A stretch of 64,000 nt of DNA from Lampris incognitus (Eukaryota). The stretch is from positions 16,786,216 through 16,850,215 of the forward strand of contig NC_079220.1 in assembly GCF_029633865.1 (NCBI RefSeq). Reading direction: 5' to 3'. The notes below the pieces were generated by a model that did not search any database, was not told where the DNA came from, and saw only the letters and a program-made list of their open reading frames with translations. Shown here one piece after another: positions 17,058 to 47,711 of this stretch (position 1 is the first letter of the stretch; each line of letters begins with the position of its first letter). A program made the position numbers and the translations under genes.

Positions 17058-17224
17058 ATGATGTCCATGAAGGGAGGAAACAAGGGGCAGGAGATTGAGG
17101 TGCCAATGGACACATCAATCATCCGTATCCCGCCTCACCATTACATCCATGTTCTGGACCTAAACATCAACATTGCCCGTGTGGAGATTGGACCACTCAC
17201 TTACATACGCCAGGACAATGAAAG
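17058..17224 (+). CDS. mvp: major vault protein, coding exon 1 (the initiator may be the ATG at 17106)
   Basis: Acceptor cttctag|ATGATG. The ORF translates to ..[39 protein letters not shown](R), matching the vertebrate MVP N-terminus (IIRIPPYHYIHVLDQN...TYIRQDNER). Donor AG|gtcaga. Confidence 0.8.
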
Positions 17225-17355
17225 GTCAGAAGTCAGATGAAGGAAATTATGGCTCAAAAATCTTAAGTTGTAGAGTACATTAACATTCATTGCAAAGTAA
17301 AGTTCAAATGGTGTTAAGTGGCCATTTGCTGACATATTCAAATTAATATGTTTTG

Positions 17356-17795
17356 GGGCGTCCGGGTAGTGTAGCGGTCTATTCTGTTGCCTACCAACAC
17401 AGGGATTGCAAGTTCGAATCCCTGTGTTACCCCCTGCTTGGTCGGGCGCCCCTACAGACACAATTGGCCATGTCTGTGAGTGGGAGGCTGGATGTGGGTA
17501 TGTGTCCTGGTCGCAGCACTAGCGCCTCCTCTGGTCGGTTGGGGCGCCTGTTCAGGAGGGAGGGGGAACTGGGGGGAGTAGCGTGATCCTCCCACATGCT
17601 ACGTCCCCCTGGCGAAACTCCTCACTGTCAGGTGAAAAGAAGTGGCTGGCGACTCCACATGTATCGGAGGAGGCATGTGGTAGTCTGCAGCCCTCCCCTA
17701 ATCAGCAGAGGGGGTGGAGCAACGACCGGGACAGCTCGGAAGAGTGAGGTAATTGGCTGGGTACAATTGGGGAGAAAAAGGAGGGGGAAAAATGG
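17356..17795 (+). repeat. tRNA-derived SINE family A, full-length copy (mvp intron 1)
   Basis: tRNA-like head ggggcgtccgggtagtgtagcggtc...gttcgaatccc (A and B boxes), conserved body, tail gtaattggctgggtacaattggggagaaaaagg. Confidence 0.75.
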
Positions 17796-18124
17796 TAATA
17801 TGTTTTTTTACTGCAGTATGACCTGTTATAAGTGATGGGCAAAAGAAAAGGGTTGACGCCATAAGGCTAAGGTATCCTTTTATAATCTAGCTAAAGCTGC
17901 AATAAGTTTCACCTCATCAGGTTAGTCAGATTTGGTCATATTTCCTTTGTCTCAGCATGATTCTTAACAGTTATAAAGGCAGAAAGGCCCTTTATGTACT
18001 AGAAGTGTTAAGTAGTACCTCAAAGTGGCTTTAGTTGGATGTTTTTTATTTCTGTGGACATTATCGGAGACAATATGGCTGGTTTTGTGGCGTCTAGAAT
18101 CCACACTATGCAAAAACAGTTCTT

Positions 18125-18565
18125 TTTTTTCGGATTTCCCCCCCCTTTTTTTCTCCCCAATTGTATTTGGCCAACCACCCCACTCCTCCGAGCCATCCCA
18201 TTCGCTGCTCCACCCCCTCTGCCGATCTGTCAAGGGCTGCAGACTACCATATGCCTCCTCTGATACGTGTGGAGTTGCCAGTCACTTCTTTTCACCTGAC
18301 AGGGGGGAGTTTCGCCAGAGGGACGTAGCAAATGGGAGGATCATGCTATTCTCCCCAGTTCCCCGTCCGCCTTGAACGGGCGCCCCGACTGACTAGAGGA
18401 GGGACTAGCGCAGTGACCAGGACATATACCCACATCCGCTTCCCACCCGCAGACACAGCCAATTGTGTCTGTAGGGACGCCCAACCAAGCCGGAGGTAAC
18501 ACGGGGATTCACACTGCCGATCCCTGTGTTGGTACGCAATGGAATAGACCCACTGGCGTAACATA
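18125..18565 (-). repeat. SINE family A, full-length copy inverted relative to 17356-17795
   Basis: Reverse complement of the same head, body and tail; followed by a C-run and (CA) stretch. Confidence 0.75.
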
Positions 18566-19324
18566 TTTATTATGGGCCCTGGTGCAAGCAACCCTTGTAG
18601 ACCCAACCCCCCCCCCCCCCGTCTCTCTCTCACTCACTCACACACACACACCACCACCACTATAGGTGGGTTTAGTAAGTAATTTTAGTAATTTATTTGT
18701 ATAGCACCTTTCACAGATATACAATCACAAAGTGCTTCACAGCATAAAATATAACAAATAAAATAGAAATATCAAAGTCACAGACAAATTTTACACAGAT
18801 TAGTTATTGTAAAGGTCAGTACATCAAAGATTGGCTACACTTCAGAACCACGGAGAGCGGACGCACCACGAACAGAGTTCGGAAACCTAAACAGACGGTC
18901 TCTTAATCAAATCAGTCGACAAGGCAATGAAACAAGTCAGCAAAGCCACTAGGCTGTAATATAGCTAATAGCCTTGTCATTCGACAGTAACAGTGGAGCA
19001 CACATCAGACTCAAAACCTGGTAGATTGCATGGTTTGGCACGCATGCAGCACACATTGCAGCTTTCCTTTTTTTCCTTGCTCTCCTTCCTCTTTTTACAT
19101 CCACTTTTATGTGTGTAACACATGCTTGCTTGCTTGATTTTATTTTTCTAATGTTACTTAGGTAGGCTAGATAGGTAAATGATATTGCGTGCACTAAACA
19201 AGCTATCATCACATGCTCAAAACAGACACGTAACATTGGACTAGGACAATGCATGCAGAAATATTGAGGGCCCCCCCTAGCGACGGGCCCTGGTGCCACT
19301 GCACCGGCTGCACCACCTATATTT

Positions 19325-19365
19325 ACGCCAGTGAATAGACCGCTACACTACCCGGATGCCCCTGG
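19325..19365 (-). repeat. SINE family A head fragment
   Basis: cagtgaatagaccgctacactacccggatgcccc is the reverse of the tRNA-like head. Confidence 0.4.
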
Positions 19366-19857: not shown

Positions 19858-20053
19858 AGTGCTTTTCCGTCCTGCACGTATGACCATGGTGCCGCCACGC
19901 CACTTCTGTGTGATCATCAACCCTGTTGCCCGTGATGACAACGGTCAGGTGCTCTTCGACCAGTCCGGTCAGGCCAAACTTCGCCATGCTGACCTGGAGA
20001 TTCGGCTGACCCAGGATCCCTTCCCCCTTTACCCCGGAGAGGAGATCCAACAG
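19858..20053 (+). CDS. mvp: major vault protein, coding exon 2
   Basis: ttcccag|AGTGCTT. (R)[65 protein letters not shown]. Donor CAG|gtctgt. Confidence 0.88.
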
Positions 20054-20460: not shown

Positions 20461-20584
20461 GATGTGACGCCTCTGCAGATAGTGTCTGCAGACACTGCAC
20501 TGCGTCTTCAAGCTTTGCTGGACTTTGAGGAGGAAAACGGGGAGAAGAGGGTGGCCGGAGATGAGTGGCTCTTCGAAGGGCCCG
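20461..20584 (+). CDS. mvp: major vault protein, coding exon 3
   Basis: tctcgcag|[47 protein letters not shown](G). Donor CCCG|gtgtgt. Confidence 0.88.
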
Positions 20585-21094: not shown

Positions 21095-21510
21095 AGGTTG
21101 TTAGGGGTGTCCGGGTGGCGTGGCACGGAGATCAACGGTTCGAATCCCCGTGTTACCTCCAGCTTGGTCAGTGGTCCCTACAGACACAATTGGCCGTGTC
21201 TGCAGGTGGGAAACCAGATGTGGGTATGTGTCCTGGTCACTGCACTAGCGCCTCCTCTGGTCGGTCAGGAGCCTGTTCGGGGAAGAGGGGGAACCGGAGG
21301 GAATAGTGTGAGCCTCCCATGCACTACGTCCCCCTGGCGAAACGCCTCACTATCAGGTGAAAAGAAGCGGCTGGTGACTCCACATATATCGGAGGAGGCA
21401 TGTGGTAGGCTGCACCCCTCCCCAGATCGACAGGGGGGGTGGAGCAGCGACCGCGACAGCTTGGAAGAGTGGGGTAATTGGCCAAGTACAATTGGGGAGA
21501 AAAGGGGAAA
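21095..21510 (+). repeat. SINE family A copy (mvp intron 3)
   Basis: ggggtgtccgggtggcgtggcacggagatcaacggttcgaatcccc... through ...gtaattggccaagtacaattggggagaaaagg. Confidence 0.75.
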
Positions 21511-21865
21511 AAATCCAAAAAAAGAAAAGAGACATGGTTGTGTTTGATTAATGGCTGCCATCTTGTCTAACCTTCTTGTCTGAATGGACATATAGAATAT
21601 CACATATGAAAATAATGCATAGAAAAAGACTAGAACAATATAATACAAATATACAAAACTTTGACGATATGAAATTTTAACCCCCTTCCGACCCCCCCCC
21701 CCCACACACACACAAAATAAATCACAAATTATTAAGCTAAAGACCCAACACATTAATGAGAGAGGACTTTTGTCTAAATCTTCATTTAGTCACCAGGAAT
21801 AAAACCAAAAAGGCTCCTTTTGTGATAGACTCTTCATGGTGACCTTTGAACTCTGACCCTGACAG

Positions 21866-21997
21866 GGACCTACATCCCTAGGAAGGAGGTGGTGGTGGTG
21901 GAGACCATTAAAGCCACAGTGATCAGAGAGAACCAAGCCATCCTCCTTAGGGCCCGCAAGGAGGGCATGGACAGAGGAGGGGTCCGCAGAGTCACAG
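21866..21997 (+). CDS. mvp: major vault protein, coding exon 4
   Basis: ccctgacag|GGACC. (G)[43 protein letters not shown]. Donor ACAG|gtgaga. Confidence 0.88.
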
Positions 21998-22089
21998 GTG
22001 AGATGGAAAAGAGTAGAATTTTACTGTCTAAACTGAGCTTAAAGAATTATTTCTTAATTATTTATCTGTCCACCTATGTGTTGTCTCAG

Positions 22090-22184
22090 GCGAAGTGTGG
22101 CAAGTGAGCAAGGTGGGGCCGTATCTGCCTGGAGCCCATGAAGAAGTTCTTGACATCGTCAACGCATTCATTCTAACTGACAAG
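22090..22184 (+). CDS. mvp: major vault protein, coding exon 5
   Basis: tgtctcag|GCGAAG. (G)[31 protein letters not shown]. Donor AAG|gtgact. Confidence 0.85.
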
Positions 22185-22299: not shown

Positions 22300-24047
22300 T
22301 TATTTCCTTCAGTGGTAAAACAGAATGCTAGAGGATTTGACAGCATTTTTTAAAAGATTAATTTACTTGTTTAAAGTCAATTCAAATAGCATGTCACAAT
22401 TTGATCCCATCAACCATAAAAACTTGGGAGACATTATACAACATCTGAAATCCTCCTCCTTCTGCCTTGATATTTTGCCAACAGGCTTTTTCAAAAATGT
22501 TTCTAATTGCATGTCCTCAGATCTTCTACAAATTGTCAACACGTCTCTTCCCTCAGGTCTTTTCCCACAGGCCCTGAAAACTGTAGTCATCAAGCCACTC
22601 TTAAAAAAGAATAATCTAGAAACTTCACTAATGAACAGTTATAGGCTGATTTCGAACCTCACATTTTTAAGCAAAATCACTGAAAAGGCTGTTTTCCTGT
22701 AGCTCAACAACTTTTTGGCACTAAACAATTGTTTCTATGTCTTCTGGTCTGGATTTCCACCACACTACAGCACAGAGACTGCTCTTGTTAAGGTCTTTAA
22801 TGACATCTGCTTAAATGCAGACAGTGGCAGAATCTCAGTCCTGGTATTATTGGATCTCAGTGCTGCATTTGACACAGTTGATTACAACATATTACTAGAC
22901 CAAATTGGAAAACTGGGTGGAACTTTCTGGCACAGCACTAAACTGGTTTGAATCCTACTTAAAGGACAGGGACTACTTTGTGTCTATAGGTAATTACAAA
23001 TCTGAGTGTACAAAAATGACATGTGGAGTTCCCCAAGGCTCCATTCTGGGACCACTTCTGTTTCACTTCTATATGCTCCCACTCATCCAGATTATGGAAA
23101 ACAACAAAATCTTACCATAATTATGCAGATGACACGCAGATTTACATAACCATATCACCAGGGGACTATAATCCCATACAAGCACTGAGTAAGTGATTTG
23201 AACAAATTAATGATTGGATGTCTCAGAATGTTCTTCAATTAAACAAAGATAAAACTGAAGTATTTGTCTTTGGAGCAAGGGAAGAACGATTAAGAGTCAG
23301 CATTCATCTACAATCGGTAATTTTAAAAACCACGAACTAAGCCAGAAATCTTGGTATGGTCATGGAGTCAGACCTGCATTTAGATAACCACATGAAGACA
23401 TTTATAAAGTCAGCCTACTATCACCTGAAGAATATATCAAGAACTAAAGGATTTATGTCTCAGCAGGATTTGGAAAAATTTGTCCATGCATTTATCTTCA
23501 GTCGACTCTACTACTGTAATGGTGTCTTTGCAGGTCTTTCTAAAAAAGCGATGAAACAGCTGCAGTTGCTTCAGAATGCTGCTGTTCGAGTCCTTACTAC
23601 AGTGGTGCCCAACCCTGCTCCTGGAGAGCTACCATCCTGCCGTTTTTCACTCCAACTCTAATTTAACACACCCGATTCTACTAATTACCTACTGACCAAG
23701 ATCTTGTTTAATTGAATCAGATGTGTTAAAATCAGGGTTAAACCGGCAGGGGGTTAGCTCTCCAGGAGCAGAGTTGGGCACCACTGCCTTACTACAACCA
23801 AAAGAGTGGCTCACATCAATCCAGTCATGAGGTCGCTACACTGGCTTCCTGTCTATCAAAGAACTGATTTTCAAACTCTGCTGTTGGTTTATAAAGCACT
23901 GAGTTGTTTAGGGCCAAAATACATTTCTGATCTACAGCTACACTATGAACCTTCCAGACCGCTCAGATCGTCTAGGGACAGGTCTGTTTCTGTCCCCAGA
24001 GTCAAACCTAAACATGGAGAGGTAGCTTTCAGTTTTTATGCACCATG
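22300..24047 (+). mobile_element. L2-like LINE ORF2 (RT and C-terminal domain) fragment; its 3' tail continues at 25247-25340 after the Tc1-derived insertion
   Basis: RT motifs across frame-shifted ORFs ([57 protein letters not shown]). C-terminal SLHWLPVYQRTDFQTLLLVYKALSCLGPKYISDL...PRVKPKHGEVAFSFYAP is typical of fish L2 elements. Confidence 0.75.
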
Positions 24048-24049
24048 TA

Positions 24050-25246
24050 CACTACCGTTCAAAAGTTTGGGATCACCCAAACAATTTTGTGTTTTCCATG
24101 AAAAGTCACACTTATTCACCACCATATGTTGTGAAATGAATAGAAAATAGAGTCAAGACATTGACAAGGTTAGAAATAATGATTTGTATTTGAAATAAGA
24201 TTTTTTTTACATCAAACTTTGCTTTCGTCAAAGAATCCTCCATTTGCAGCAATTACAGCATTGCAGACCTTTGGCATTCTAGCTGTTAATTTGTTGAGGT
24301 AATCTGGAGAAATTGCACCCCACGCTTCCAGAAGCAGCTCCCACAAGTTGGATTGGTTGGATGGGCACTTCTTTGAGCAGATTGAGTTTCTGGAGCATCA
24401 CATTTGTGGGGTCAATTAAACGCTCAAAATGGCCAGAAAAAGAGAACTTTCATCTGAAACTCGACAGTCTATTCTTGTTCTTAGAAATGAAGGCTATTCC
24501 ATGCGAGAAATTGCTAAGAAATTGAAGATTTCCTACACCGGTGTGTACTACTCCCTTCAGAGGACAGCACAAACAGGCTCTAACCAGAGTAGAAAAAGAA
24601 GTGGGAGGCCGCGTTGCACAACTGAGCAAGAAGATAAGTACATTAGAGTCTCTAGTTTGAGAAACAGACGCCTCACAGGTCCCCAACTGGCATCTTCATT
24701 AAATAGTACCTGTTAGAGCCTGTTTGTGCTGTCCTCTGAAGGGAGTAGTACACACCGGTGTAGGAAATCTTCAATTTCTTAGCAATTTCTCGCATGGAAT
24801 AGCCTTCATTTCTAAGAACAAGAATAGACTGTCGAGTTTCAGATGAAAGTTCTCTTTTTCTGGCCATTTTGAGCGTTTAATTGACCCCACAAATGTGATG
24901 CTCCAGAAACTCAATCTGCTCAAAGAAGTGCCCATCCAACCAATCCAACTTGTGGGAGCTGCTTCTGGAAGCGTGGGGTGCAATTTCTCCAGATTACCTC
25001 AACAAATTAACAGCTAGAATGCCAAAGGTCTGCAATGCTGTAATTGCTGCAAATGGAGGATTCTTTGACGAAAGCAAAGTTTGATGTAAAAAAAATCTTA
25101 TTTCAAATACAAATCATTATTTCTAACCTTGTCAATGTCTTGACTCTATTTTCTATTCATTTCACAACATATGGTGGTGAATAAGTGTGACTTTTCATGG
25201 AAAACACGAAATTGTTTGGGTGAACCCAAACTTTTGAACGGTAGTG
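24050..25246. mobile_element. Palindromic Tc1-derived non-autonomous element, copy A (TA|CACTACCG...CGGTAGTG|TA)
   Basis: About 540-bp inverted arms; each carries the Tc1 TIR (cactaccgttcaaaagtttgggatcaccc) and the transposase N-terminal HTH coding part (MARKRELSSETRQSILVLRNEGYSMREIAKKLKISYTGVYYSLQRTAQTGSN). ORFs 24313..24525(+) and 24771..24983(-) are identical. About 120 nt of unique loop at the centre. TA duplicated at both flanks. Confidence 0.8.
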
Positions 25247-25727
25247 TATCTGGAACAAACTCCCAGAAAACTGCAAGTCTGCTGTAACTCAGTTTTTTAA
25301 AAATCAAGACTGAAGACTTTTCTCTTTACCGCTTCCTTTTATTAAATAAAAGTTGAAGCTTTTGATTCTCATCTTACACTTCACTGTAACTTTTACTCTT
25401 TTTATTTGTTTTAAATATCTTTTTACTGCCTTATGTTGCTTCTCTTAATGCCTTTTATGTTTTATGTAAAGCACTTTGAATTGCCTTGATGCTGAAATGT
25501 GCTATATAAATAAATTTGCCTTGCCTTGTTTATATCAAATGCTCAATTATAGGCTCAATTATTTATACAACACACACACACTCACACACATTTGTGAATT
25601 CTCTCTCTTTGTCCATCTCTCTCTTGTCTGACTGATGTGTTCACACATTGTAATAAAGATTGTACAATAGAATATATCACCATGCAACCTTTCACTGAAA
25701 ATAACTCTCTGTCTCTCTCTCTCTCAG

Positions 25728-25964
25728 AAAGCTCTACACGTGCGTGCTCTGCTACCCTTCAGGGATGCGGGTGGGCGTGATCGGCGTACAGGGGAGGAGT
25801 GGCTCGTCACTATAGCTGACAGGGAGGCGCACATCCCCTCGGTGGCAGAGGAGGTGGTGGGCGTGGTGAATGTAACCACGCTAAGCAGCCGGCAATACTG
25901 CGTGATCCTGGACCCCGTGGGGCCTGACGGGAAACCCCAGCTGGGTCAGAAGAGGGTGGTTAAG
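25728..25964 (+). CDS. mvp: major vault protein, coding exon 6
   Basis: ctctctcag|[85 protein letters not shown]. Donor AAG|gtatgg. Confidence 0.9.
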
Positions 25965-27596: not shown

Positions 27597-27722
27597 GGTG
27601 AGCGCTCATTCTTCCTGCAGCCGGGGGAGTCATTGGAGCAGGGCATCCAGGATGTGTACGTGCTGTCAGAGGAGGAGGGCTTGGTGCTGAGGGCTGTGGA
27701 GGCCTTCAACGACACAGAGCTG
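27597..27722 (+). CDS. mvp: major vault protein, coding exon 7
   Basis: ctctatcag|[48 protein letters not shown]. Donor CTG|gtgaga. Confidence 0.9.
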
Positions 27723-28329: not shown

Positions 28330-28765
28330 ATCATTGTTTACAGTCGGATTAGCATTTGGATTCCCCCCCCACCCCCCTTTTTCTCCCCAGTTGTACTTGG
28401 CCAATTACCCTGTTTTCCGAGCCATCCTGGTCACTGCTCCACCCCCTCTGCCAATCCGGGGAGGGCCCTAGACTACCACATGCCTCCTCCGATACGTGTG
28501 GAGTCACCAGCTGCTTCTTTTCACCTGACAGTGAGGAGTTTCGCCAAGGGGACATAGTGCATGGGAGTATCACGCTATTCCCCCCAGTTCCCCCTTCTCC
28601 TCGAACAGGCGCCCCGACTGACCAGAGGGGGCGCTAGTGCAGCAAACAGGACACATACCCACATCCGGCTTCCCACCCACAGACACGGCCAATTTTGTCT
28701 GTAGGAACACCTGGCCAAGCCGAAGATAACACGGGGATTCGAACCAGCGATCCCTGTGTCTCTCC
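28330..28765 (-). repeat. SINE family A copy (mvp intron 7)
   Basis: Reverse-oriented body and head (…acacggggattcgaaccagcgatccctgtg). Confidence 0.75.
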
Positions 28766-29006
28766 TTTGGTCTACTCATTCCTCCATGGTCCAATTTCTC
28801 TTAAAATCCCCCATCCCTCCATCCATCTCCCCATTCTTCCATTTCTCCTTCATTCTCCCCATTGTATTTCTCTCCTCCTCAGCTCCTCACTCAAGCCCCC
28901 TTGCCCCCGTACTCTTGACCCCCATCATCCCTCCTCGCTCCAGTGCATCGCCACACTAACCCTTATCTCCTTCCTCCTCATCTCTCTCTCCCGCTCTGTC
29001 TGCCAG

Positions 29007-29228
29007 CAGCAAACCATAGACGAGGAATCAGATGAGGAAGAGCTGGGCCAGGAGAGGGCCAAGCGTTCGCGGAGGAGCGGGATCCTCCGTCGGCCGGGAG
29101 ACCGCTGGATGCTGCGCGGCCCCATAGAGTATGTGCCCCCCACCGCTGTGGAGGTTCTGGTGAAACGCCATGCTATTCCGTTGGATGAGAATGAAGGGAT
29201 CTATGTCAGGGACATCAAGACGGGGAAG
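29007..29228 (+). CDS. mvp: major vault protein, coding exon 8 (tandem CAGCAG acceptor; alternative start at 29010)
   Basis: ctgccag|[80 protein letters not shown]. Donor AAG|gtgagc. Confidence 0.85.
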
Positions 29229-29404: not shown

Positions 29405-30630
29405 CTCCCTCATATGTACAATGATGAGCCAAAACATTATGACTGCTTGCAGGTAAACCAAATAACGTTAATCATCTCCAAACAAGAGCACATGTCAAGG
29501 TCTGGGTTGATTAGATGGTAAGCAAACAATCAGTTCTTGTAGTCAATGTGCTGGATGCAGGAGAAATGGGGAGGAATAAAGACCTGAGCGACTTTGATGA
29601 GGGCCAAATTGTTATGGCCAGATGACTGGGTCAGAGCTTGTTTGAAACAACAAGGCTTGTGGGGTGCTCCCAGTCAGCAGTGGTGAGTACCTACCAGTAG
29701 TGGTCCGAGGAGGGACAAACCACACACAGGTGACAGGGTGTTTGGTGCCCAAGGCTCATCGATGTCCAAGGGTAATGACGGCTATCCCATCTGGTCCGAA
29801 CCAACAGAAGGTCTACTGTGGCACAGAAAATTTAAGTGATGGTTACGGTTGGAGTGTGTCATAACACACAGTGCATCACAGCCTGCTGCATATGGGGCTG
29901 CGTAGCTGCAGACTGGTCAGAGGGTCCATGATGACCTCTGTCCACCGTCGAAAGTGCCTACAATGTGCAAACAAGCATCAGAACTGGACCTTGGAGCAGT
30001 GAAAGAAGGTCACCTGGTTTGATGAGTCCCGTTTTCTTTTAGATCATGTGGATGGCTGTGTACATGTGCGCCATTTACCTGGGGATGTGATTGCACCAGG
30101 ATGTACTGTGGGAAGACGACAAGCTAGTGGCGGGAGTGTGATGCTCTGGACAATGTTCTGCTGGGAAACCCTGGGAAACCATGTGGACATCAATTTGACA
30201 TGTGCCACCTACCCAAACAATGTTGCAGAACAGGTATACCCCTTCATTGCCATGGTATTCCCTGATGGCAGTGGCCTCTTTCAGCAGGATAATGCACCCT
30301 GCCACACTACACACATTGTTCGGGAATGGTTTGAGGAACATGACGAAGTGTTCAAGGTGTTGTCCCGGCCTCCAAATTCTCCAGATCTCCATCCGAGCAT
30401 CTGTGGGATGTGCTGTACCTATAAGTGCGATCCATAGCGGCTCCACCTTGCAACTTACAGGAATTGAAGGATCTGCTGTTAATGTTTTGGTGCCAGATAC
30501 CACAGGACACCTTCAGGGATCTTATAGAGTCCATGCCTCAGCGGGTCAGCGCTGTTTTGGTGGCACATGGATGACCAACAGCGTACCAGGCAGGTGGTCA
30601 TAATGTTTTGGCTCATTAGTGTGCATACTT
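29405..30630 (+). mobile_element. Tc1-like transposon with transposase pseudogene (mvp intron 8)
   Basis: Terminal inverted sequences atgagccaaaacattatgac (about 29414) and ggtcataatgttttggctcat (about 30596). DDE-domain ORF 30048..30437 (WTMFCWETLG...FQQDNAPCHT...PPNSPDLHP) with upstream in-frame stops and frameshifts. Confidence 0.75.
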
Positions 30631-34551: not shown

Positions 34552-34787
34552 GTGCGCGCAGTCATTGGCCAGACATACATGCTGACCCAGGATGAGGAGC
34601 TGTGGGACAAGGAGCTGCCCAAGAACGTGGAGGTCCTCCTGACCTGCGGCAATGACCCCCTTGCTGACCGCTCCCACCGGCTGGATGTCAGCGAGGGCAG
34701 GGAGAGAGATAAGACCAGGGTGGTTTCCTACAGAGTCCCCCACAATGCTGCTGTCCAAGTCTACGACTACAGGGAGAAAAAAGCCAG
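34552..34787 (+). CDS. mvp: major vault protein, coding exon 9
   Basis: ggctcacag|[84 protein letters not shown](R). Donor CCAG|gtagga. Confidence 0.9.
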
Positions 34788-36190: not shown

Positions 36191-36388
36191 GGTGGTGTTT
36201 GGACCTGAGCTGGTAATGCTGGGGCCAGATGAGCAGTTCACGGTTCTTTCGCTGTCTGGAGACAAACCCAAGAGGGCCAATGTCATCAAGGCCGTGTGTC
36301 TGCTGTTGGGGCCAGACTTCTGTACTGACATCATCACTATCGAGACGGCCGACCACGCCCGCTTGCAACTGCAGCTGTCCTATAACTG
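36191..36388 (+). CDS. mvp: major vault protein, coding exon 10
   Basis: gggacag|GGTGGT. (R)[65 protein letters not shown](W). Donor CTG|gtaagg. Confidence 0.9.
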
Positions 36389-36607: not shown

Positions 36608-36752
36608 GCACTTCGACATCAAGAATCGGGATGATCCTGCTGAAGCGGCGGCCCTTTTTTCTGTCCCCGACTTTGTGGGAGACGCTTGTAAGGCCATTGC
36701 CTCCCGCATCAGAGGAGCTGTCGCCTCCGTGCAGTTTGACGACTTCCATAAG
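36608..36752 (+). CDS. mvp: major vault protein, coding exon 11
   Basis: ctctcag|GCACTT. (W)[48 protein letters not shown]. Donor AAG|gtttgc. Confidence 0.9.
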
Positions 36753-37119: not shown

Positions 37120-37331
37120 AACTCCAACCGTATCATCTGTTCAGCGGTGTTTGGTTTCGATGAGAAGCTGGCAGTGAGGCCCAAACTGTGTTTCAGCCAA
37201 AACAACCTGAATGTCAGCAGTGTGGACATCCAGTCTGTGGAACCGGTGGACCAGAGGACACGTGATGCCCTGCAGAAGAGCGTCCAACTGGCCATCGAGA
37301 TCACCACCAACTCCCAGGAAGCCGCTGCACG
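37120..37331 (+). CDS. mvp: major vault protein, coding exon 12
   Basis: tctgaccag|[76 protein letters not shown](R). Donor CACG|gtttgc, followed by (CA)n. Confidence 0.88.
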
Positions 37332-37333: not shown

Positions 37334-37438
<105 letters not shown>

Positions 37439-37449
37439 CCCTGCTTTTG

Positions 37450-40400
37450 CTAGTTGTCCATCGTATCCGATGATGACCATCTTCTCCTATTTGTGAGTCC
37501 TTTGGTGGCTGAATAGTCTGATCCTGGATGCACAGTTGCAGTTGCAGACCGGGCATGTAAAAGTGGTGCGGGGGGGGTAGCTTTGCGAGCATGCCTCTTT
37601 GCATGCTTTGCTACACGGTGTTGTGTGTGCTGGTTTTCCATATACTTCTCTCTCTGTGAGACGTGAGAGCACCAGATGATGTGGCAGGAGGCAAGTTCCT
37701 CTAAAGAAGAGGGGTTGATCTGGCATCTTTTCAGTGTGGTCTTCATTTGGTCTTTGAACCACTTCTTCTGCCCACCAGCACTGCGTTGACCGAGGTGAAG
37801 TTGGCTGTAGAGGGCTTCACGTGAGAGTTGTTGGCTGGGCATGCGAATGACATGCCCAAGCCACCTGAGTTGATGGTGGTTTAGGGTAGACTCCACGCTG
37901 CAACTGCCTGCCCGTTTCAACACCTCTATGTGTGTCACTCTGTCCTTCCAAGTAATGCCGAGGATTCTATGGGGACATCTCACATGGAAGGCCTCCAGGC
38001 TTCTGAGATGGTGGCTGTAGATGGTCCATGCCTCACATCTATATAGTAATGTGGAGATGCATACTGCTGTGTAAACAAGCACTTTGGTGTGGAGATTGAG
38101 GTTGCTGTTCTCGAAAACCTCTCTTTATACGACCAAAAGATGTTGAGACTTGTTTGAGGCGGTGTTGGATCTCATCATACATTGTGCAGGTGTCAGATAG
38201 TATGCTTCCCAGATATTTGAAGGCAGGAACAGTGGCCAGCTGTTGCCCTTCTGCTGTCAAGGTTGTTGGGTGGCTTGGGAGGCCGGCACTCATCTGACAG
38301 ATTACCTCTGTCTTTTGGGTGTTGATGATCAGTCCCATTCTACTGTATGCAGTTACAACTGCCGACAGTGTGTTTTGTAGGGCTTCTGGTGTGTGGGCTA
38401 CCGGGGCACAATCGTCGGCATACTGTAGCTCAATGATATTCTCAGAGGTCAACTTGGTGGTTGCCTGAAACCTCCTGATGTTGAATAGGTTATCACTGAG
38501 CCTGAAGTCAATGGTGACTCCAGCCTGCTTCTCCATCCTCCTTCGTAACAGTGTTGTAACACAGACTAAGAAGATATTGAACAGGACTGGGGCTAGCACA
38601 CAGTTTGGTGTGCAGCCTGACTCCAGTCTGCAAACCAAAGGGCTCAGAACTGTGACTACCTACTACTACTCAAGCCATCATTCCTGAGTGAAACTGTCCA
38701 AGCATGGTGAGAAACTTGGGTGGACATCCAAAGTTCTTCAGGACTTGCCACAGTAGGTCCCTGTTGACTGTATCAAATGCCTTTGAGAGGTCTATGCATG
38801 CTATGAATAAGTCCTTGTGCTGTTCTTGTCATTTCTCCTGGAGCTGGGGTGTGACAAAGATCATGTCAACTGTCATTCTATCCTGTCGGAAGCCGCATTG
38901 TGACTCTGGTATGACCCGGTTGGCTATTGTTAGTGTTAGTCTGTGGAGCATGATCTTGGTTAGGACCTTTCCGGCAATGGCCAGTAATGAAATATCCCTA
39001 CTGTTGGAGCAGATGGATTTGTCTCCTTTGTTTTTATAAATGGTCACAATGTTGGCATCTTTCCACTGTTGGAGGACACACTCGTGACTCAACATCTCAA
39101 GGATGTAGAGACACAGTGTCCTCATACAGAGGTAGCCTCCTTCCTTGAGGATGTCAGCTGGAATGTTATCAGGTCCAAGGGTTTTATTGTTTTTCAGGGT
39201 CTTGACCACATGTAGGATTTCTTTGAAGGTTGATGGGAGGTCTAGATCTTGCAAGGTAGGCTGTTCAGGGAGCTCTGCCAGTACAGCTGAGTGCACTGGG
39301 GTGGGCTGGTTGAGCAGGGTGTTAAAATGCTCGGCCCACCACTCCATTAACAGGGCCTGGTCCTTAATAAGAGTTGTTCCATTAGCAGATCTAACGGGTG
39401 CCAGGGAGCAGTTTCTGGGGCTATAGATGGTCTTAACTGCATCACAGAAGCTATGAATTTCGTTCCTGTCTGCATGAGCCTGGATTTCGTTGGCTTTCAA
39501 AATCCATCACTCATTTTGCAGGTTCCGCAGAGTTGCTTGGGCCTCAGAGCGGAGGTCTTGCCATTGTTTCTTGAGAGGTTGGGATAGTGGGTTGCTGAGG
39601 GTGGCTCTGTGTGCCTTATACATGTGGTCCAGGAGGGTGGAGAACTTTCCGGCATCGTCATCAAGGCAGTCTTGATGTTTTTTGGTTTTGAAGCCAATGG
39701 ATTAGGCTGCACTGTCAAAGAGGGTGTTGCTCAGAGAGGTCCACTTCTCATCCATCCCAGACTCTGAGTTGATCAGCTGTTCAACGTCTACTAACTTGTT
39801 GGCTAGAGAATGACGGAAGGTGTTTGGGGTGTCGCTGTTGGAAAGTCTCGGGCAGTGGAGCGGTTTCTTCTTTGGCCCACATTGGCGTCTCAAAGTTCAA
39901 ACATGCACTCGACTTTTGTCAGGATCATGCAGTGGTCTGTCATCCAGCAGTCTGTTCCTCGCATAGCTCTTGTAAGGATCACGTCTTTAAAATCAGCCCA
40001 CCTCACGATAGCATAAGGTGTCAGTGTTTGATCTGGGATGCATCCAGGATGCCTTGTATTTATTCTTTTGTTGGAAAATGGTGTTTGTGATGGTGAGGTC
40101 ATGTTCTGAGCACAGACTAAGAAGTCTTACGCCATTGGAGTCAACTTTTCCAGTGCCATGGGTGCCAATCACTCCATTCCAGTTTTGCATGTTCTTCCCA
40201 ACTCATGCATTAAAATCCCCAAGCAGAATGACTTTGTCACTCCTTGGGATGTTGTTGAGTATACCATCGAGTGCCTGGTAGAAGCGAGCTTTCTCTTCAT
40301 CATGGGATGGTAAGGTTGGTGCGTAGGCACTTATCAAGGTAATGTATCGGCATTTTGTGAGGGGTATGTGGAGAGTCATCAGCCATTTGCTGATGCCCAC

Positions 40401-40910
40401 TGGTGTTTCTTCGAGACTGGGTAAGAGACTGTTCTTAATTGCAAAACCAACTCCATGAATGCGTTGACCTCCTAGGGGGTATCCTTTCCAAAAGAGTGTG
40501 TAGCCCTCTCCCATTTCATTGAGTGAGCCTTCCTCAAGGAGCCTGGTCTCACTGAGTGCCACCACATCCACACAATAGCGCTTCAGCTTGCTGTACCATG
40601 GCTGATGTCCAGGAGTGTTGTTATGTTCCACGCTGCAATTCTTAATGGTATAGTGTGTTTTCTTCGACGGCATAGTAGAATGGCCTGGCAGGTGTGGTTT
40701 CCTGCCCAGGCATAGTGTTGAGTGGGCAATTTTTGGGCCACCTTTTCTAGGCCGTTCCCCAAATGGGGTGAGCAGTGTGGTCCCTAAATAGGGCTGCTCA
40801 GACGCACAGGGGTCTGCCAGAAACAGATGCCATGCAATCCCAGGTGCTAACGACCGTTGCCCTGTGCCACTGGCGTGCAGAGTTCCAGCTAAGCGCTCCC
40901 AGCTCATTCA
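37450..40910 (-). mobile_element. LINE ORF2 (APE endonuclease plus RT plus C-terminal domain), degraded (mvp intron 12)
   Basis: Endonuclease ORF 40203..40907 (…VILLGDFNA, LISAYAPT). RT ORFs 38829..39500 and 38039..38638 (QCGFRQDRMT; ELQYADDCAPVAH). C-terminal ORF 37450..38082 (ILGITWKDRVTHIEVLKRAG...LRWLGHVIRM). Confidence 0.8.
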
Positions 40911-41924
40911 GACCTGCTCCTGTCACTGGATACTCCATCGCTCCCAGCTCATTCAGACCTGCTCCTGTCACTGGATACTCCATCGCCGTCAGACTTTGTG
41001 AGCTCGTGGACTCAGGTAGCAGGAGAAGACACCTGTGCAGAGATGGTTGTTAAAGTGGCATGGGGGGGGTGCGCTTCTCCCAATTCCACTGACTTGATTT
41101 TAGGGGAGATGGTTCCGATGGCAAGGGGGACCCCTAGACAACCGGCACCTCCTCACAACTGCAGGAGGCTGCTGGAAATCCAGTTTTTTGGAAACCACCT
41201 CGAAGCATGCTGCCACAGCTTGCTTTTCTGTTGGGGTGTGCTCCCTTAGCCTATTGTCTTCCCAGACTCACCCACAAGACAGTGGGGCAGTGGTTGATAG
41301 GTGCCAGGGCATGTCCACCAGGGTGGGCCTGCACACCGTATCTCTGTGGCCCACTGCTGCTCCGAGATCCCCTGCCAAGTTAGCCAGGGGCCGCAAGACC
41401 CCAGTTACCATGTGTGGCCGCGGGGAGGCCTGGCAGGAGTCTTGGTGAAGGGGAGGCTATGTACTGGCTAGGGAAGGCTTACACACTAGGATGCTTACCT
41501 GTTCGCCACAAGGGCTAGCCAGTGGCAGTGAGCTAAAGCAGGAGGGTTGCAAGCAGGTCGGAAGACCACATGCACCTTTCCTCCAAATATACACTGCTGC
41601 ATTAGATGCATCACAACACCCTGTGGGCAGCCACACACACACAGACACACACGCCTTTAATAGTTTGTAATCGGTTAATACAGTTGATATATAGTTCTGA
41701 TTTTTTACTCAGTGCTTAGCCCTGTTTGTAGCCTGTTGCACGCATAGAAAGGGGAAAATTTTGCACGCAAATGGGTGTTTCCACAATTGTGGGTCATATT
41801 TTTTTTGATCTTTTTTCATGTTCGTTTGCCAACCCCCTTGACTTTTAATGAGTCACTCAATCCGCATTTGCAAATTTCGTCCACATCATACCAGATCAGC
41901 ACATCATAGATTGCATCAAATTTG

Positions 41925-42345
41925 GTTATGGGGCATCCAGGTAGTGTAGCGGTCTATTCCGCTGCCTGCCCAACACAGGGATCGCTGGTTCAAATCTCCA
42001 GCTTGGCCGGTCATCCCTATAGACACAATTGGCCATGTCTGTGGGTGGGAAGCCGAATGTGGGTATGTGTCCTTGTCGCTGCACTAGCGCCTCCTCTGAT
42101 CAGTTGGGGTGCCTGTTCGGGGGGGAGGGGGAATAGTGTGATCCTCCCATGCACTGCATTCCCCTGGCGAAACTCCTCATTGTCAGGTGAAAGGAAGTGG
42201 CTGGCAACTCCACATGTTTCGCAGGAGGCATGTGGTAGTCTGCAGTCCTCCCCGGATCAGCAGAAGGGGTGGAACAGCGACCGGGATGGCTCAGAAGAGT
42301 GGGGTAATTGGCCAAGTACAATTGGGGAGAAAAAGGGGGACAAAA
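41925..42345 (+). repeat. SINE family A copy (mvp intron 12, about 110 bp upstream of exon 13)
   Basis: ggggcatccaggtagtgtagcggtctattccgctgcc...gtaattggccaagtacaattggggagaaaaaggggg. Confidence 0.75.
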
Positions 42346-42453
42346 CAAAACGTGAATTTGGTTATGGGAAGGGTAAACAGATATTTCCAGTAATAAAAAG
42401 GCATAATTAAGTTTACCTTTGTGTCATTCAGTCTTGTCTTTCCATTTGTGCAG

Positions 42454-42570
42454 CCATGAGGCAGAGCGTCTAGAGCAGGAGGCCCGGGGAAAGCTGGAAA
42501 GACAGCGGATCACCGACCAGGCAGAGGCAGAGAAAGCCAGGAAGGAACTGCTGGAGCTGGAGGCTCTCAG
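42454..42570 (+). CDS. mvp: major vault protein, coding exon 13
   Basis: ccatttgtgcag|CCATGAG. (R)[38 protein letters not shown](S). Donor TCAG|gtgaac. Confidence 0.88.
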
Positions 42571-42759: not shown

Positions 42760-43370
42760 AATTCAATTCAATTTTATTGTCATTAAAAACAATGTGCAGG
42801 CACATGTTAAAAATGAAATGAGGGCTGTGGCTTCACCAAACAGTGCAAGACAGACACAGACAAACACAGCAAACACAGTATAAGATATACACACATGAAG
42901 ACCAAAAGCTAAAAATAAGTTAAAAGAGAGCTGGAGTACAAAATATTTAAAAATATCTACAGACATTCAGTGGGTAGCCAGGTTCAGGTGGGCAACAGCT
43001 TGTGGAAAGAAGCTGTTTTTGAGCCTGGAAGTGCGGGCTCTGAGGCTCCTGTAGCGCCTCCCAGAGCGCAGGGGGGAGAACAGTCCATGGTTGGGGTGGG
43101 TGGGATCTCTGCTGATGCTCAGACCCCTTCGAAGGTAGCGTTTGTGATAAATGTCTTTTATGGCTGGGAGCTGGGTACCGGTGATATGCTGGGCCGCCTT
43201 GACGATCCGCTGCAGAGCTTTCTGGTCTACTGAGATGCAGTTGCCGTACCACACTGAGATGCAGATGGTCAGGATGCTCTCTATGGTGCAGTGGTAGAAG
43301 TTGGTGAGAATTTTGGGGGGTAGACGGGCGCTCCTCAGCCTCCTCAAGAAAGAGAAATCTCAGAAGCCAT
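42760..43370 (-). mobile_element. LINE (L2-type) 3'-terminal fragment
   Basis: ORF 42967..43347: ...QKALQRIVKAAQHITGTQLPAIKDIYHKRYLRRGLSISRDPTHPNHGLFSPLRSGRRYRSLRARTSRLKNSFFPQAVAHLN, the typical tail of fish L2 ORF2. Confidence 0.6.
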
Positions 43371-43377
43371 ATCGTTT

Positions 43378-43765
43378 TACTGGGGCGGCACGATGGCGCA
43401 GTGGTTAGCACGGTTGCCTCACAGCAAGAAGGGTCTGGGTTTGAGCCCTGGGTAGTCCAACCTTGAGGGGGGGTCATCCCAGGTTGTCCTCTGTGTGGAG
43501 TTTTCATGTTCTCCTGTGTCTGCATGGGTTTCCTCCGGGTGCTCCGGTTTCCTCCCACTCTCCAAAGACATGTAGGTCAGCTGAATCGGCCATACTAAAT
43601 TGCCCCTAGGTATGAATGTGTGTGTGTGTGTGTGTATGTCGGCCCTGTGTGATGGTCTGGCAGCCTGTCCAGGGTGTCTCCCCGCCTGCCGCCCAATGAT
43701 TGCTGGGATAGGCCTCAGCATCCCCGCGACCTTGAGAGCAGGATAAACGGTTCAGATGATGGATG
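43378..43765 (+). repeat. tRNA-derived SINE family B
   Basis: ggggcggcacgatggcgcagtggttagcac...gggtttcctccgggtgctccggtttcctcccac...ctgctgggataggc...gatggatgg, a widespread teleost SINE architecture. Confidence 0.8.
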
Positions 43766-44226
43766 GATGGATATCATTTTACTTCTTACTTGTTAGCTTA
43801 GCTTTAACAAATTTTTCTTAACCAGCATTTTCACAAGTACATGGAAAATCCTAAAAATTAGAATATAGTTTTGAACTATTTTTACTTAATATACGTAGCC
43901 GTCATCTTCCACCATAGAAGACTATGGATACACATGGTGAGTGGTCACATCAGTCATTTGAGGGAAGATAAAGGTGATTAATTGCTGCAATTCTTAGATA
44001 CCAAAGTCACTGTGATAAAGACTAACATTATTCTAAACTTGTTGAAACCATAGTTTATATGGACCATAGATGAAAATAACTAACTGAAGTACATGAACGA
44101 TTTTACACTGCATACTCTGTGGATTTTGGAGGCAAACTTAACCTCAAGTAACTGAAAATATTGTGGAGGAAGTCATTTCCAGGCCTGATTCTTAGTGTGT
44201 GTGTGTGTGTGTGTGTGTGTCCATAG

Positions 44227-44353
44227 TGCGGCAGTGGAGAGCACCGGTGCTGCCAAGGCTGAGGCCCTGTCCAGAGCTGAGGCAGCCCGCATCCAAGGGG
44301 AGGCGGCCGTCAACGAAGCCAAACTCAAGACAGAGGCCCGGAGGATTGAGGCT
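44227..44353 (+). CDS. mvp: major vault protein, coding exon 14
   Basis: gtccatag|TGCGGC, acceptor directly after (GT)n. (S)[42 protein letters not shown]. Donor GCT|gtacgt. Confidence 0.85.
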
Positions 44354-44999: not shown

Positions 45000-45440
45000 T
45001 GGGACCATTGGGTTGACCCCCAGTTTTTCATAACCAATGATTTCACGAGTACACGCGAAATCCTAAAAATCAGATTATAGTTTTGAACTATTTTTCTGTA
45101 ATACATGTATGCATCATTTTCTGGCATTGACGAAGATAGATCTCCTCCCTTTCTCACCATGGTAGAAGAGTTTGAACCCACCTCCGATGCTCCTAGCCTT
45201 CCTCCCCTTCCACCTGGTCTCTTGCACACAAAGTATGCCTACCTTTCTTCTTTCCATCATATCAGCCAGCTCGCTCCCTTTACCGGGCATAGTGCCAACA
45301 TTCAAAGTTCTCACTCTCACACTCCTACCCTTCCTCCTCTCTCGCTGCCTCTGGACATGCATTCCCCCTCTCCTTCGTCCAACAGTAGCATAGTTTCCAC
45401 CGGCACCCTGCTGGCTGACAGTACCGTTGGCAGTCATTGG
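45000..45440 (-). mobile_element. LINE endonuclease N-terminal fragment
   Basis: ORF 45114..45437 ...VRTLNVGTMPGKGSELADMMERRKVGILCVQETRWKG. Confidence 0.5.
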
Positions 45441-45779
45441 TAACCCGGGGCTCGACCAACCCGGTATGGAAATCTTATTTATGATCCGAATATTTGATTT
45501 GGCAAAGATTTTACACCGGATGCCCTTCCTGATGCAACCCTCCCCATTTATCAGGGCTTGGGACCAGCACTAAGAATGCACTGGCTTATGCATCCTCAGT
45601 GGCTGGGTTGTTGAAGAACACAGATATGCTTTATATATAAATATATTAAATCATCTAAAAGTTTTCAGCAGTACAGATCGCATTTGGACAATATTTAGAT
45701 CCTGCTTCATGAGCGTACAACAGTGACAAGTCACAGCGAAGGAGTTCATGTCGGCTCGATGTCTTGATGCATGCTCAAT

Positions 45780-47060
45780 AATCCAGGTAAGACATTCAAA
45801 GGAGGTTGAATCAGTCCATCTGGACACTTGACAGATACGTTTCATCACTCAGCTAAGTGACCTCTTCAGTCTAAACTGACTGCAGGTATCCCCACCCTTA
45901 TAAACAATACAGTTGCGTAACGACTGAAATCAATGACCAGTTTTACATGCAAATAAGGGCATGACCATTAACTAGAGTTTCAAAGGCCACGTGTACTATT
46001 CACAGTGGATTAGGGAATGTTGCAATCACAGCAATTTAAGATGGTGACGGACAGGGATGGTCATTCCTTCTTAATTTAACTGTTGATGTTTACTGTAAAC
46101 CTACACATACTGATCACTACTTAAGGTTTGACTCTCATCATCCACTGGAGCACAAACTAGGAGTCATCAGGACGCTGCACCACAGAGTTGACAACATCCC
46201 CACCCACACAGCAGGCGGGGAAGAGCAGAAATCCCACATTAAACAGGCCCTGGTTAAGTGTGGTTATCCTAACTGGGCGTTTGTCAAAGCCAGGAAGACG
46301 CCCAAACAGTGCACCAGCCAGTCGAAGAGAGGAGAAGGACAACAGCTGCCTAAGCGTAAACCAGTGGTGATTCTGTATGTGGTGGGAGTGTCGGAAAAGC
46401 TGAAATGCATATTTTACAAACACTGCGTCTCAGTTGCTTTCAAACCCCAAAACACGCTGCACCAGAAATTGGTCCGCCCCAAGGATCGGGTCCCCCGGCA
46501 CAAACAGCGCAATTTAATGCACACTGTTAAGTGCCAGGAGGATTGCCGTGACTTGTACATTGGGGAAAGAAAGCAGACGCTGGCCAAGAGGATGGCACAA
46601 CACAGGAGAGCTAACACATCAGGCCAGGACTCAGCAGTCTACACCATCTACAGGCCAGTGGCCACTCTTTCAAAGATGAGGATGTGCACATCCTTGATAG
46701 GGAGGAAGGCTGGTTTGAACAGGGAGTCAAAGAGGCCATCTATGTGAAGAGGGAACTACCATTCCTGAACTGAGGGAGGGGGGGGGGCTAAGAGTACATC
46801 TGTCACCATCTTACAATAATGTGATTGCAAACATTCCCTAATCCTCTGTGAATAGTACACATGACCATTGTAACTCTAGTTAATGGTCACGCCCATATTT
46901 GCATATGAAACTGATCGTTCGTTTCAGTCGTTCTGCAACTGTAGTGTTTATAAGGGTGGGGATTCCTGCAGTCAGTTTAGACTGAAGATGTCACTTAGTT
47001 GAGTGATGAAATGTATCTGTCAATAAACGTTTTATCCAGATGAACTGATTTAACCGTCTT
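45780..47060 (+). mobile_element. Penelope-like element fragment: GIY-YIG endonuclease coding remnant flanked by about 250-bp inverted repeats (mvp intron 14)
   Basis: ORF 46364..46747 with VVILYVVGVSEKLKCIFYKHC...CQEDCRDLYIGERKQTLAKRMAQHRR, a GIY-YIG-like pattern. 45795-46050 is the reverse complement of about 46800-47050. Confidence 0.5.
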
Positions 47061-47240
47061 TGACATGTCGGCTAGACTAATGGCTCCGTTACTTAATGTT
47101 TTTTCGTTTGTGTACGTGTGTCTGTCCGTGTATGCATGTCAAATCAACATGTGCATAAAATGTAGGTTAGACCGAAGACGTTCATCATTCTAGTGTGTGT
47201 GTATGTGTATGTGTATGTGTGTGTGTGTACCATCATGCAG

Positions 47241-47429
47241 GAGGCAGAGCTGCTACGTCTCGCCAAGGCTCGGGAACAGGAGTTGACCTATAAGAAGGAA
47301 ATGGATCGTCTGGAGATGGAGAAGCAAGAGAAACTGGCTCATATCGAGAGTAACCGCTTCATCAAGATGGTGCAGAGTCTGGGGACTGACACCCTCAAAG
47401 AGATGGCCAGAGCTGGACCGGAGATGCAG
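47241..47429 (+). CDS. mvp: major vault protein, coding exon 15
   Basis: ccatcatgcag|GAGGCA. EAELLRLAKAREQELTYKKEMDRLEMEKQEKLAHIESNRFIKMVQSLGTDTLKEMARAGPEMQ. Donor CAG|gtacag. Confidence 0.88.
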
Positions 47430-47591
47430 GTACAGTACAGGCTCCTGTTGTGTTCAGAGTCAGAATGAAAAAAGAAAAAAACTTTTGAGGTTAATTTTAC
47501 TATGGGGATTCATTCATGGTACTTTTCTCTTCCCTTTGCTCTCCCTCTGTCTTTGACAATTTCGCGCTTTGTCTGTCTGTCTGTCTCTCAG

Positions 47592-47711
47592 GTCAAATTG
47601 CTTCAGTCTTTGGGGCTGAAGTCTACGCTCATAACAGACGGCTCCTCGCCAATCAACCTCTTCACTACAGCCAACGGCCTCCTGGGGGCGCTGCCGGGCC
47701 AGGCCCAGTAA
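47592..47711 (+). CDS. mvp: major vault protein, terminal coding exon (stop TAA at 47709-47711)
   Basis: tgtctctcag|[45 protein letters not shown]. The conserved MVP C-terminus is (E)[25 protein letters not shown]. Confidence 0.9.

Follow-up and report, generated by a model that had tools for sequence, protein, structure and literature searches.

Major vault protein of the opah, Lampris incognitus: a 16-exon gene read from raw genomic sequence

Among the closest described counterparts of the opah major vault protein (MVP) are the human and rat proteins, whose vault shells have been solved (for example, PDB 4V60, 4HL8, 7PKR, and 11DR) and with which it shares its domain order. The opah gene, mvp, is already known through annotation by NCBI. 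It is a conserved, ordinary housekeeping gene, and its structure holds no surprise. The main value of the present analysis is as a calibration: reading of the raw sequence alone recovered a 16-exon vertebrate gene exactly. The window that was analyzed, a stretch of 64,000 nucleotides from Lampris incognitus, is anchored by this gene to the opah genome and to a euchromatic region rich in transposable elements (TEs). Judging from the sequence, we put at about 97% the probability that positions 17058 to 47711 hold an intact, intron-containing mvp gene of L. incognitus, single in the window.

Coding exons and splice junctions

A tblastn search of the window with an MVP query returned 16 collinear + strand matches at the mvp locus, with E values down to 4e-29, and no comparable match in the window outside 17058-47711. 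Exon boundaries were set by enumerating GT/AG pairs junction by junction, after which the exons were concatenated. The coding exons are listed below with what identifies or distinguishes each of them (a slash within a sequence marks a splice site).

Coding exon 1, 17058..17224, + strand: ATG at 17058 right after an AG acceptor; amino acids 1-56; holds the N-terminal motif IIRIPP.HYIHVLD
Coding exon 2, 19858..20053, + strand: tblastn, GT/AG junctions, ORF
Coding exon 3, 20461..20584, + strand: tblastn, GT/AG junctions, ORF
Coding exon 4, 21866..21997, + strand: tblastn, GT/AG junctions, ORF
Coding exon 5, 22090..22184, + strand: tblastn, GT/AG junctions, ORF
Coding exon 6, 25728..25964, + strand: tblastn, GT/AG junctions, ORF
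Coding exon 7, 27597..27722, + strand: donor CTG/GTGAGA at 27722
Coding exon 8, 29007..29228, + strand: tandem acceptor cag/CAG/CAA; encodes an acidic/basic insert conserved in teleosts
Coding exon 9, 34552..34787, + strand: tblastn, GT/AG junctions, ORF
Coding exon 10, 36191..36388, + strand: tblastn, GT/AG junctions, ORF
Coding exon 11, 36608..36752, + strand: the shoulder domain begins here
Coding exon 12, 37120..37331, + strand: tblastn, GT/AG junctions, ORF
Coding exon 13, 42454..42570, + strand: cap-helix
Coding exon 14, 44227..44353, + strand: cap-helix
Coding exon 15, 47241..47429, + strand: cap-helix
Coding exon 16, 47592..47711, + strand: cap-ring; stop codon TAA at 47709-47711

Joined together, the 16 exons form an ORF of 2643 nt that encodes 880 amino acids, contains no internal stop, and terminates with the TAA of exon 16. 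All introns are of the GT-AG type (15 of 15, with 30 of 30 splice dinucleotides canonical), and the reading frame is kept at every junction. Coding sequence makes up 8.6% of the 30,654-bp span. The initial annotation had described a 16-exon mvp gene, and its start, end, exon count, 2643-nt ORF, TAA, and coding fraction all agree with this reconstruction, as does the absence of in-frame stops from the single concatenated ORF.

The hand-built product was identical at 880 of 880 residues to XP_056143417.1 (major vault protein isoform X1 of L. incognitus, an NCBI prediction), and comparison with this protein did not displace any exon boundary. The splice junctions, and the transcription that they presuppose, are predicted from sequence logic and from agreement with the XP_ model of NCBI, which is itself computational. 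A second NCBI prediction, isoform X2 (XP_056143418.1), matched the model at 879 of 879 residues and has one Gln fewer at exon 8, owing to the tandem CAG/CAG acceptor at this position. The acceptor at 29007 gives X1 (880 aa), and a switch to the acceptor at 29010 would yield X2 (879 aa).

One other donor was considered for exon 7. The site at 27695 (GCT/GTGGAG), with an ORF of 2616 nt, was preferred when human MVP served for scoring. It was rejected because the human protein, the scoring reference, lacks the teleost insert. The donor at 27722 is stronger and agrees with teleost homologs as well as with the NCBI protein.

Domains, conservation, and intactness of the product

All four vault-repeat families of Pfam were matched in opah MVP far above their gathering scores, with E values from 1e-21 to 1e-57: Vault (PF01505), Vault_2 (PF17794), Vault_3 (PF17795), and Vault_4 (PF17796). 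The repeats are followed by MVP_shoulder (PF11978) at residues 552-670, which correspond to profile positions 1-118 of 118 (E 4.8e-52). In the alignment to the human MVP PDB chain, residues 19-876 of the query were paired with chain residues 5-853 at 1263 bits, and the score for rat was similar. The cap-helix/cap-ring region (query 680-876) was collinear with solved human MVP up to residue 853 of the chain, at high posterior probability. These end-to-end alignments to human and rat MVP, at about 1260 bits, bear out the earlier description of the product as colinear with vertebrate MVP. From homology with the vault shells solved for rat and human, we infer that 78 copies of opah MVP would assemble into a barrel-shaped vault particle. 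Its wall would consist of the stacked N-terminal repeat domains, with the shoulder domain as the turn; the long cap-helix coiled coil would drive oligomerization, and the C-terminal cap-ring would close the cap.

Among the best 120 database matches of opah MVP, identity ranged from 84 to 100% and coverage from 97 to 100%, and nearly all of the named entries are called major vault protein. One of the 120 goes by an unrelated name, although it is 87% identical and has vault domains by Pfam; it looks mislabeled.

At columns that are invariant in 119 other fish MVPs, the opah protein has three private substitutions (Q35L, T37I, and Q750L). Other fish species have between 0 and 4 such changes, so the conservation of opah MVP is normal. 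Q35L and T37I sit in the N-terminal motif, which otherwise does not vary between fish and human; where the first repeat domain of the others has the loop HVLDQN(T/S)N, that of opah reads HVLDLNIN. The first MVP repeat domain forms the waist where the half-vaults meet, and the opah is, to our knowledge, the only whole-body endothermic fish. That the two changes are adaptive for half-vault association or thermal stability, rather than neutral noise, is nonetheless very doubtful.

The presence of two private substitutions in an invariant motif also bears on whether the locus is a duplicated, non-functional mvp (an unprocessed pseudogene) whose frame is still open. Teleosts underwent an additional genome duplication, and salmonids have retained a pair of mvp-like genes, as seen from "major vault protein-like" entries among the matches listed. 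We regard such a pseudogene as extremely improbable here, given the complete 880-codon ORF, the fully canonical splice dinucleotides, the strong scores in all domains, and the normal count of private substitutions. Moreover, the best 120 matches include only a single cluster of Lampris MVPs, all from one contig, and a paralog of at least 84% identity would show among them; additional MVP-like fragments were absent from the window. A processed copy is ruled out by the introns. The concern over a pseudocopy that was raised in the initial annotation therefore found no sign in its favor, and the locus is best read as an intact gene.

Transcript ends, transposable elements, and neighbors

The coding model is right but somewhat likely to be incomplete, in that the gene would comprise at least 17 exons, with a non-coding exon about 3.2 kb upstream and a 3' end several hundred bases past the stop codon. 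The ATG at 17058 immediately follows a polypyrimidine tract and an AG acceptor; in human MVP, translation starts in the second exon. A CpG-enriched patch at 13250-14250 terminates in a good donor (13951). With this donor joined to 17058, the ATG is preceded by an in-frame stop, and no other ATG lies between the two. The patch and its donor could, however, be a coincidence. Judging from these signals, transcription of mvp may begin at the following candidate feature.

13790..13951, + strand: candidate non-coding first exon and promoter of mvp, suggested by a CpG observed/expected ratio of about 1.0 and the donor AAG/GTAGGA at 13951

Poly(A)-like hexamers after the mvp stop first occur at 48007 (ATTAAA) and 48448 (AATAAA), either of which may mark the poly(A) site. 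A longer transcription unit complements the coding model and does not contradict it.

The 30.6-kb extent of mvp would be due only to introns filled by SINEs, LINEs, Tc1-like, and other TEs. Such filling is expected, since about half of the opah genome consists of repeats (reported as approximately 50% TEs, with the largest LTR share of any teleost; PMC8693259). The following elements were recognized.

17350..17790, + strand: tRNA-derived SINE of about 430 bp, with an A-box and B-box-like head
457-613, 18135-18550, 21137-21523, 28367-28759, 41925-42350, 49406-49966, and 55831-56251: further copies of this SINE
22319..24147, + strand: frameshifted LINE reverse-transcriptase remnant in intron 5 (RVT_1, below the Pfam gathering score)
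24045..25249: 1.2-kb Tc1-like non-autonomous element in intron 5, with inverted arms of about 540 bp
30003..30434, + strand: Tc1/mariner DDE transposase fragment in intron 8
35232-35642: similar Tc1/mariner fragment in intron 9, matching 59823-60135
37453..40907, - strand: LINE in intron 12, opposite in strand to mvp, with an AP-endonuclease domain (40206-40907) and a reverse transcriptase (38042-39506)
42970..43769, - strand: LINE-tail-like ORF in intron 13, with a Pfam ALKBH8_N match
45828..47023, + strand: repeat element in intron 14, with 225-bp inverted repeats that are 88% identical

Copies of the 430-bp SINE supply TE content of introns 1, 3, 7, and 12. The Tc1-like element of intron 5 has a second copy at 60286-61490 (99.7% identical), and the dispersed repeat at 43370-43769 in intron 13 recurs at 53745-54068 and 57161-57530. 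The intron 14 element is tentatively called Penelope-like; its 235-aa ORF (46040-46744) matches GIY-YIG weakly. Labels are likewise tentative for the hAT-like ORFs at 33565-34035 and 48500-48793, the LINE tails, and the ORF at 45117-45569, which had no credible Pfam match and were named from motifs recognized by eye. According to the initial annotation, every intron above 1 kb carries a TE. This holds for nine of the ten, but in intron 6 (25965-27596) no TE signal came from Pfam on its ORFs, from a search for inverted and direct repeats, or from a sensitive blastn comparison with the window. In intron 12, 9 nt past the exon 12 donor, begins a perfect (CA)49 microsatellite (37340-37437).

The view that mvp is the sole host gene in the window is unproven, although no other protein matches were obtained and the flanks are rich in retroelements and transposons. 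A second host gene is unlikely, whether transcribed from the + strand starting at a patch rich in CpG (50450-51200) or built of short exons in the flanks. The portion from 50700 to 51200 has a GC content of 0.54 and a CpG observed/expected ratio of about 0.8, and a first-exon-like stretch at the patch ends with GAG/GTGAGT at 51018. However, 3595 aa of stop-free segments of at least 45 aa from 47712-57160 had no match at E <= 0.001 among 5.8 billion proteins, a database that includes the annotated opah MVP, and the other flank ORFs carry retroelement or transposase domains. This search covered protein-coding segments of that length, and inspection of 12000-17057 covered ORFs and CpG content. 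When the whole window was scanned against Rfam and for tRNAs, no tRNA was called, and no gene for a vault RNA, snoRNA, or miRNA reached its gathering threshold; the SINE heads in the window are too degenerate for tRNA calls.

The human 16p11.2 neighborhood of the gene is PAGR1-MVP-CDIPT. Human sequences of CDIPT, PAGR1, and KCTD13 gave no tblastn match in the window. The human order, with CDIPT and PAGR1 not found beside opah mvp in the window, does not define the MVP family as such. Their lack agrees with what has been reported for zebrafish, in which the order of the 16p11.2 genes is not conserved (PMC3484866).

Comparison with other major vault proteins

The initial annotation had pointed to an N-terminal IIRIPP.HYIHVLD motif and a conserved C-terminal motif; both are present in the product, and this N-terminal motif and the C-terminal cap-ring motifs of human and rat MVP are conserved in opah. 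Compared with mammalian MVP, the opah protein has an extra N-terminal extension of about 14 aa and an acidic/basic insert of about 22 aa between mammalian residues ~336 and ~355, whereas it lacks the Pro/Gly-rich C-terminal tail, a mammalian feature. The extension and the insert are common to opah and other teleost MVPs, and the exon 7/8 junction of opah mvp falls inside this insert conserved across teleosts. Acanthomorph MVPs, including those of Lates, Polymixia, Trachinotus, Thunnus, Xiphias, and others, are 874 to 885 aa long and share 85 to 89% full-length identity with the opah protein. Xiphias, Amphiprion, Archocentrus, Oreochromis, and Stegastes also have a pair of MVP isoforms that differ by one residue, at the same site as in opah.

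Structure of the opah mvp gene

When human MVP, used only as a probe, was searched against the window by tblastn, 16 collinear plus-strand matches were found between positions 17118 and 47696, with E values down to 4e-29. Across the whole 64 kb, no comparable match to the probe was obtained outside the mvp (major vault protein) locus. For each junction, all frame-keeping pairs of a GT (or GC) donor and an AG acceptor were enumerated, and the joined peptide was scored against the probe. A single clear best pair was obtained at 14 junctions. For exon 7, a weak donor at 27695 (2,616 nt) ranked first by the human-based score, and the strong donor CTG/GTGAGA at 27722 was chosen. It yields 2,643 nt, exactly the length predicted by the initial annotation. 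In a 23-sequence alignment, the region of the exon 7/8 junction was conserved across teleosts, opah included, whereas it was absent in human MVP, which is why human-based scoring misplaced this donor.

Exons of mvp (window positions)
17058-17224, +, exon 1
19858-20053, +, exon 2
20461-20584, +, exon 3
21866-21997, +, exon 4
22090-22184, +, exon 5
25728-25964, +, exon 6
27597-27722, +, exon 7
29007-29228, +, exon 8
34552-34787, +, exon 9
36191-36388, +, exon 10
36608-36752, +, exon 11
37120-37331, +, exon 12
42454-42570, +, exon 13
44227-44353, +, exon 14
47241-47429, +, exon 15
47592-47711, +, exon 16

GT-AG boundaries were present at all 15 introns. The concatenated exons, whose continuity the initial annotation had proposed as a check, form one open reading frame (ORF) encoding 880 aa, with TAA at 47709-47711 as the sole stop. 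All of its numbers (17058-47711, 16 exons, 2,643 nt, about 880 aa, and about 9% coding, here 8.6%) were reproduced. At position 17058, ATGATGTCC is immediately preceded by a polypyrimidine tract and AG and encodes the MVP N-terminal motif; the sequence up to 47711 codes for the MVP C terminus followed by TAA. An N-terminal extension of ~14 aa is common to opah and other teleost MVPs and thus supports the ATG at 17058. Upstream, a CpG-enriched patch (13250-14250) that terminates with the donor at 13951 may plausibly be a noncoding first exon and promoter of mvp.

Identity and integrity of the product

The 880-aa model matched the Pfam families Vault, Vault_2, Vault_3, Vault_4, and MVP_shoulder (E values of 1e-21 to 1e-57). 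In a PDB search, its residues 19 to 876 aligned to residues 5 to 853 of human MVP with 1,263 bits, bearing out the proposed colinearity with vertebrate MVP; rat MVP scored similarly. The best match in a collection of 5.8 billion proteins was the entry "major vault protein isoform X2 [Lampris incognitus]" (100% identity); MVPs of other acanthomorph fishes came next, at 85 to 89%. Isoform X1 (XP_056143417.1), from the same cluster, is identical to the model at 880 of 880 residues, and X2 (XP_056143418.1) is one Gln shorter, a difference at position 360 that maps to a tandem acceptor (ctgccag/CAG/CAA, 29007/29010). These identities place the window in the opah genome and show that its mvp is already annotated. 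One-residue isoform pairs occur at the same site in five percomorphs, Xiphias, Amphiprion, Archocentrus, Oreochromis, and Stegastes, and so the NAGNAG acceptor of exon 8 (CAG/CAG, 29004-29012, plus or minus one Gln) seems to be conserved in other fishes.

The initial annotation had named a processed or duplicated pseudocopy as an alternative. A processed copy is excluded by introns at 15 positions. When the model was searched against the 64-kb window by tblastn, all 16 matches fell on mvp exons, and no stray MVP fragments were found outside them. Among the top 120 matches in the protein collection, Lampris was represented by one cluster only, from a single contig. When 120 fish MVPs were aligned, opah showed three private substitutions (Q35L, T37I, and Q750L) at columns invariant in the other 119; since other species carry up to four, relaxed constraint is not indicated. 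Taken together, the introns, the absence of stray fragments in the window, and the normal constraint lend no support to a pseudocopy. Q35L and T37I (codons 35 and 37, 17160-17168) lie in the HVLDQN(T/S)N motif, invariant in the 119 other fish MVPs, and codon 750 lies within exon 14. Human MVP likewise has Gln at the residue corresponding to codon 35, in contrast to the Leu of opah. The initial finding on mvp holds up, the gene itself being an ordinary one.

Repeats in the introns and flanks

Ten mvp introns exceed 1 kb (1, 3, 5, 6, 7, 8, 9, 12, 13, and 14). The claim that each carries a transposable element (TE) held for nine of them in a search made without a repeat library. Intron 6 (25965-27596, 1,632 bp) was the only one without a detectable TE or repeat; it gave no Pfam match, inverted repeats, or ORF homology, and no other part of the window resembled it.

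Repeats and TEs (window positions; SINEs, ~430 bp and tRNA derived, from self-BLAST)
17350-17790 and 18135-18550, SINE, intron 1
21137-21523, SINE, intron 3
28367-28759, SINE, intron 7
41925-42350, SINE, intron 12
457-613, 49406-49966, and 55831-56251, SINE, flanks
Intron 5, frameshifted LINE reverse transcriptase (RT) remnant
24045-25249, intron 5, 1.2-kb nonautonomous Tc1-like element whose two ~540-bp inverted arms carry a transposase HTH-coding remnant
Introns 8 and 9, Tc1-type DDE fragments
Intron 12, minus, LINE with AP-endonuclease and RT domains
Intron 13, ORF resembling a LINE tail, and a dispersed repeat that occurs twice more in the window
Intron 14, element bounded by 225-bp inverted repeats, with a 235-aa ORF inside
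1214-2749 and 7196-8330, ~180-bp satellite array on both sides of the following element
2750-7198, minus, LTR retrotransposon; its protease, RT, RNase H, and integrase lie at 3074-6980 (ORFs of 516 and 610 aa)
8867-11932, second LTR element, frameshifted, upstream flank
58159-59226, minus, intact 356-aa Tc1/Sleeping-Beauty-type transposase ORF (HTH_SB, HTH_Tnp_Tc3_2, and DDE_3 all match)
60286-61490, second palindromic Tc1-like copy, downstream flank
61694-63829, LTR-element fragment, downstream flank

The SINE family has at least eight copies in the window, in both orientations and with 79 to 88% pairwise identity; their heads were not called as tRNAs by ARAGORN. The Tc1-like copies at 24045-25249 and 60286-61490 are 99.7% identical and oppositely oriented, and each consists of two such inverted arms and is flanked by TA. 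This near identity suggests that the element was mobilized very recently, one insertion being that in mvp intron 5. The transposase at 58159-59226 could represent an autonomous element still capable of moving the nonautonomous copies. The LTR retrotransposon located within the satellite array is apparently young, with 211-bp LTRs (2750-2960 and 6988-7198) of 99.5% identity; no target site duplication was recognizable by eye.

The minus-strand ORF of intron 13 (42970-43359) matches Pfam ALKBH8_N (E = 9e-9), a name that is probably misleading, as its surroundings resemble a fish LINE's C-terminal tail, to which a tail at 31870-32301 is related. The sole Pfam signal of the 235-aa ORF in intron 14 was a subthreshold match to GIY-YIG (E = 0.015). 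It falls on a YIGE...R...H motif, which we take to be Penelope-like, and the element is tentatively placed there. The endonuclease ORF of the intron 12 LINE has, at its N-terminal (upstream) end, a perfect tandem duplication of 45 bp (40894-40986, 2.1 copies). Simple repeats also lie close to splice sites: a perfect (CA)49 microsatellite (37340-37437) begins 9 nt past the exon 12 donor, and GT/TC-rich repeats directly abut the acceptors of exons 6, 7, 14, and 15. CA repeats in introns near splice sites can affect splicing.

Genomic setting and comparison with known systems

Searches with sequences of CDIPT, PAGR1, and KCTD13 did not find these human-type neighbors in the window, in agreement with the report that 16p11.2 gene order is not conserved in zebrafish (PMC3484866). 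Stop-free segments of at least 45 aa from the unexplained stretches of 47712-57160 (3,595 aa joined) gave no match at E ≤ 0.001 in the protein collection that includes opah's annotated MVP. Rfam and tRNA scans were both empty. A second CpG-enriched patch (50450-51200; GC of 0.54, CpG observed/expected of about 0.8 to 0.9) lies ~3 kb beyond the stop codon of mvp and contains a plus-strand first-exon-like stretch ending in GAG/GTGAGT at 51018. We could link no coding gene to this patch, which may be the promoter of a noncoding or distant gene, or nothing. That mvp is the one host gene in the window is consistent with this evidence, not proven by it.

Given its homology to the MVP of the solved rat and human vaults and the established architecture of vaults, opah MVP would assemble into the 78-subunit vault shell. 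Its repeat domains would form the barrel wall, and the shoulder, cap-helix coiled coil, and cap-ring would come next in that order. TE insertion into its introns accounts for the large size of the locus and its low coding share. Such expansion fits the opah genome, which is reported to consist of TEs for ~50% and to have the highest LTR content among teleosts (PMC8693259).
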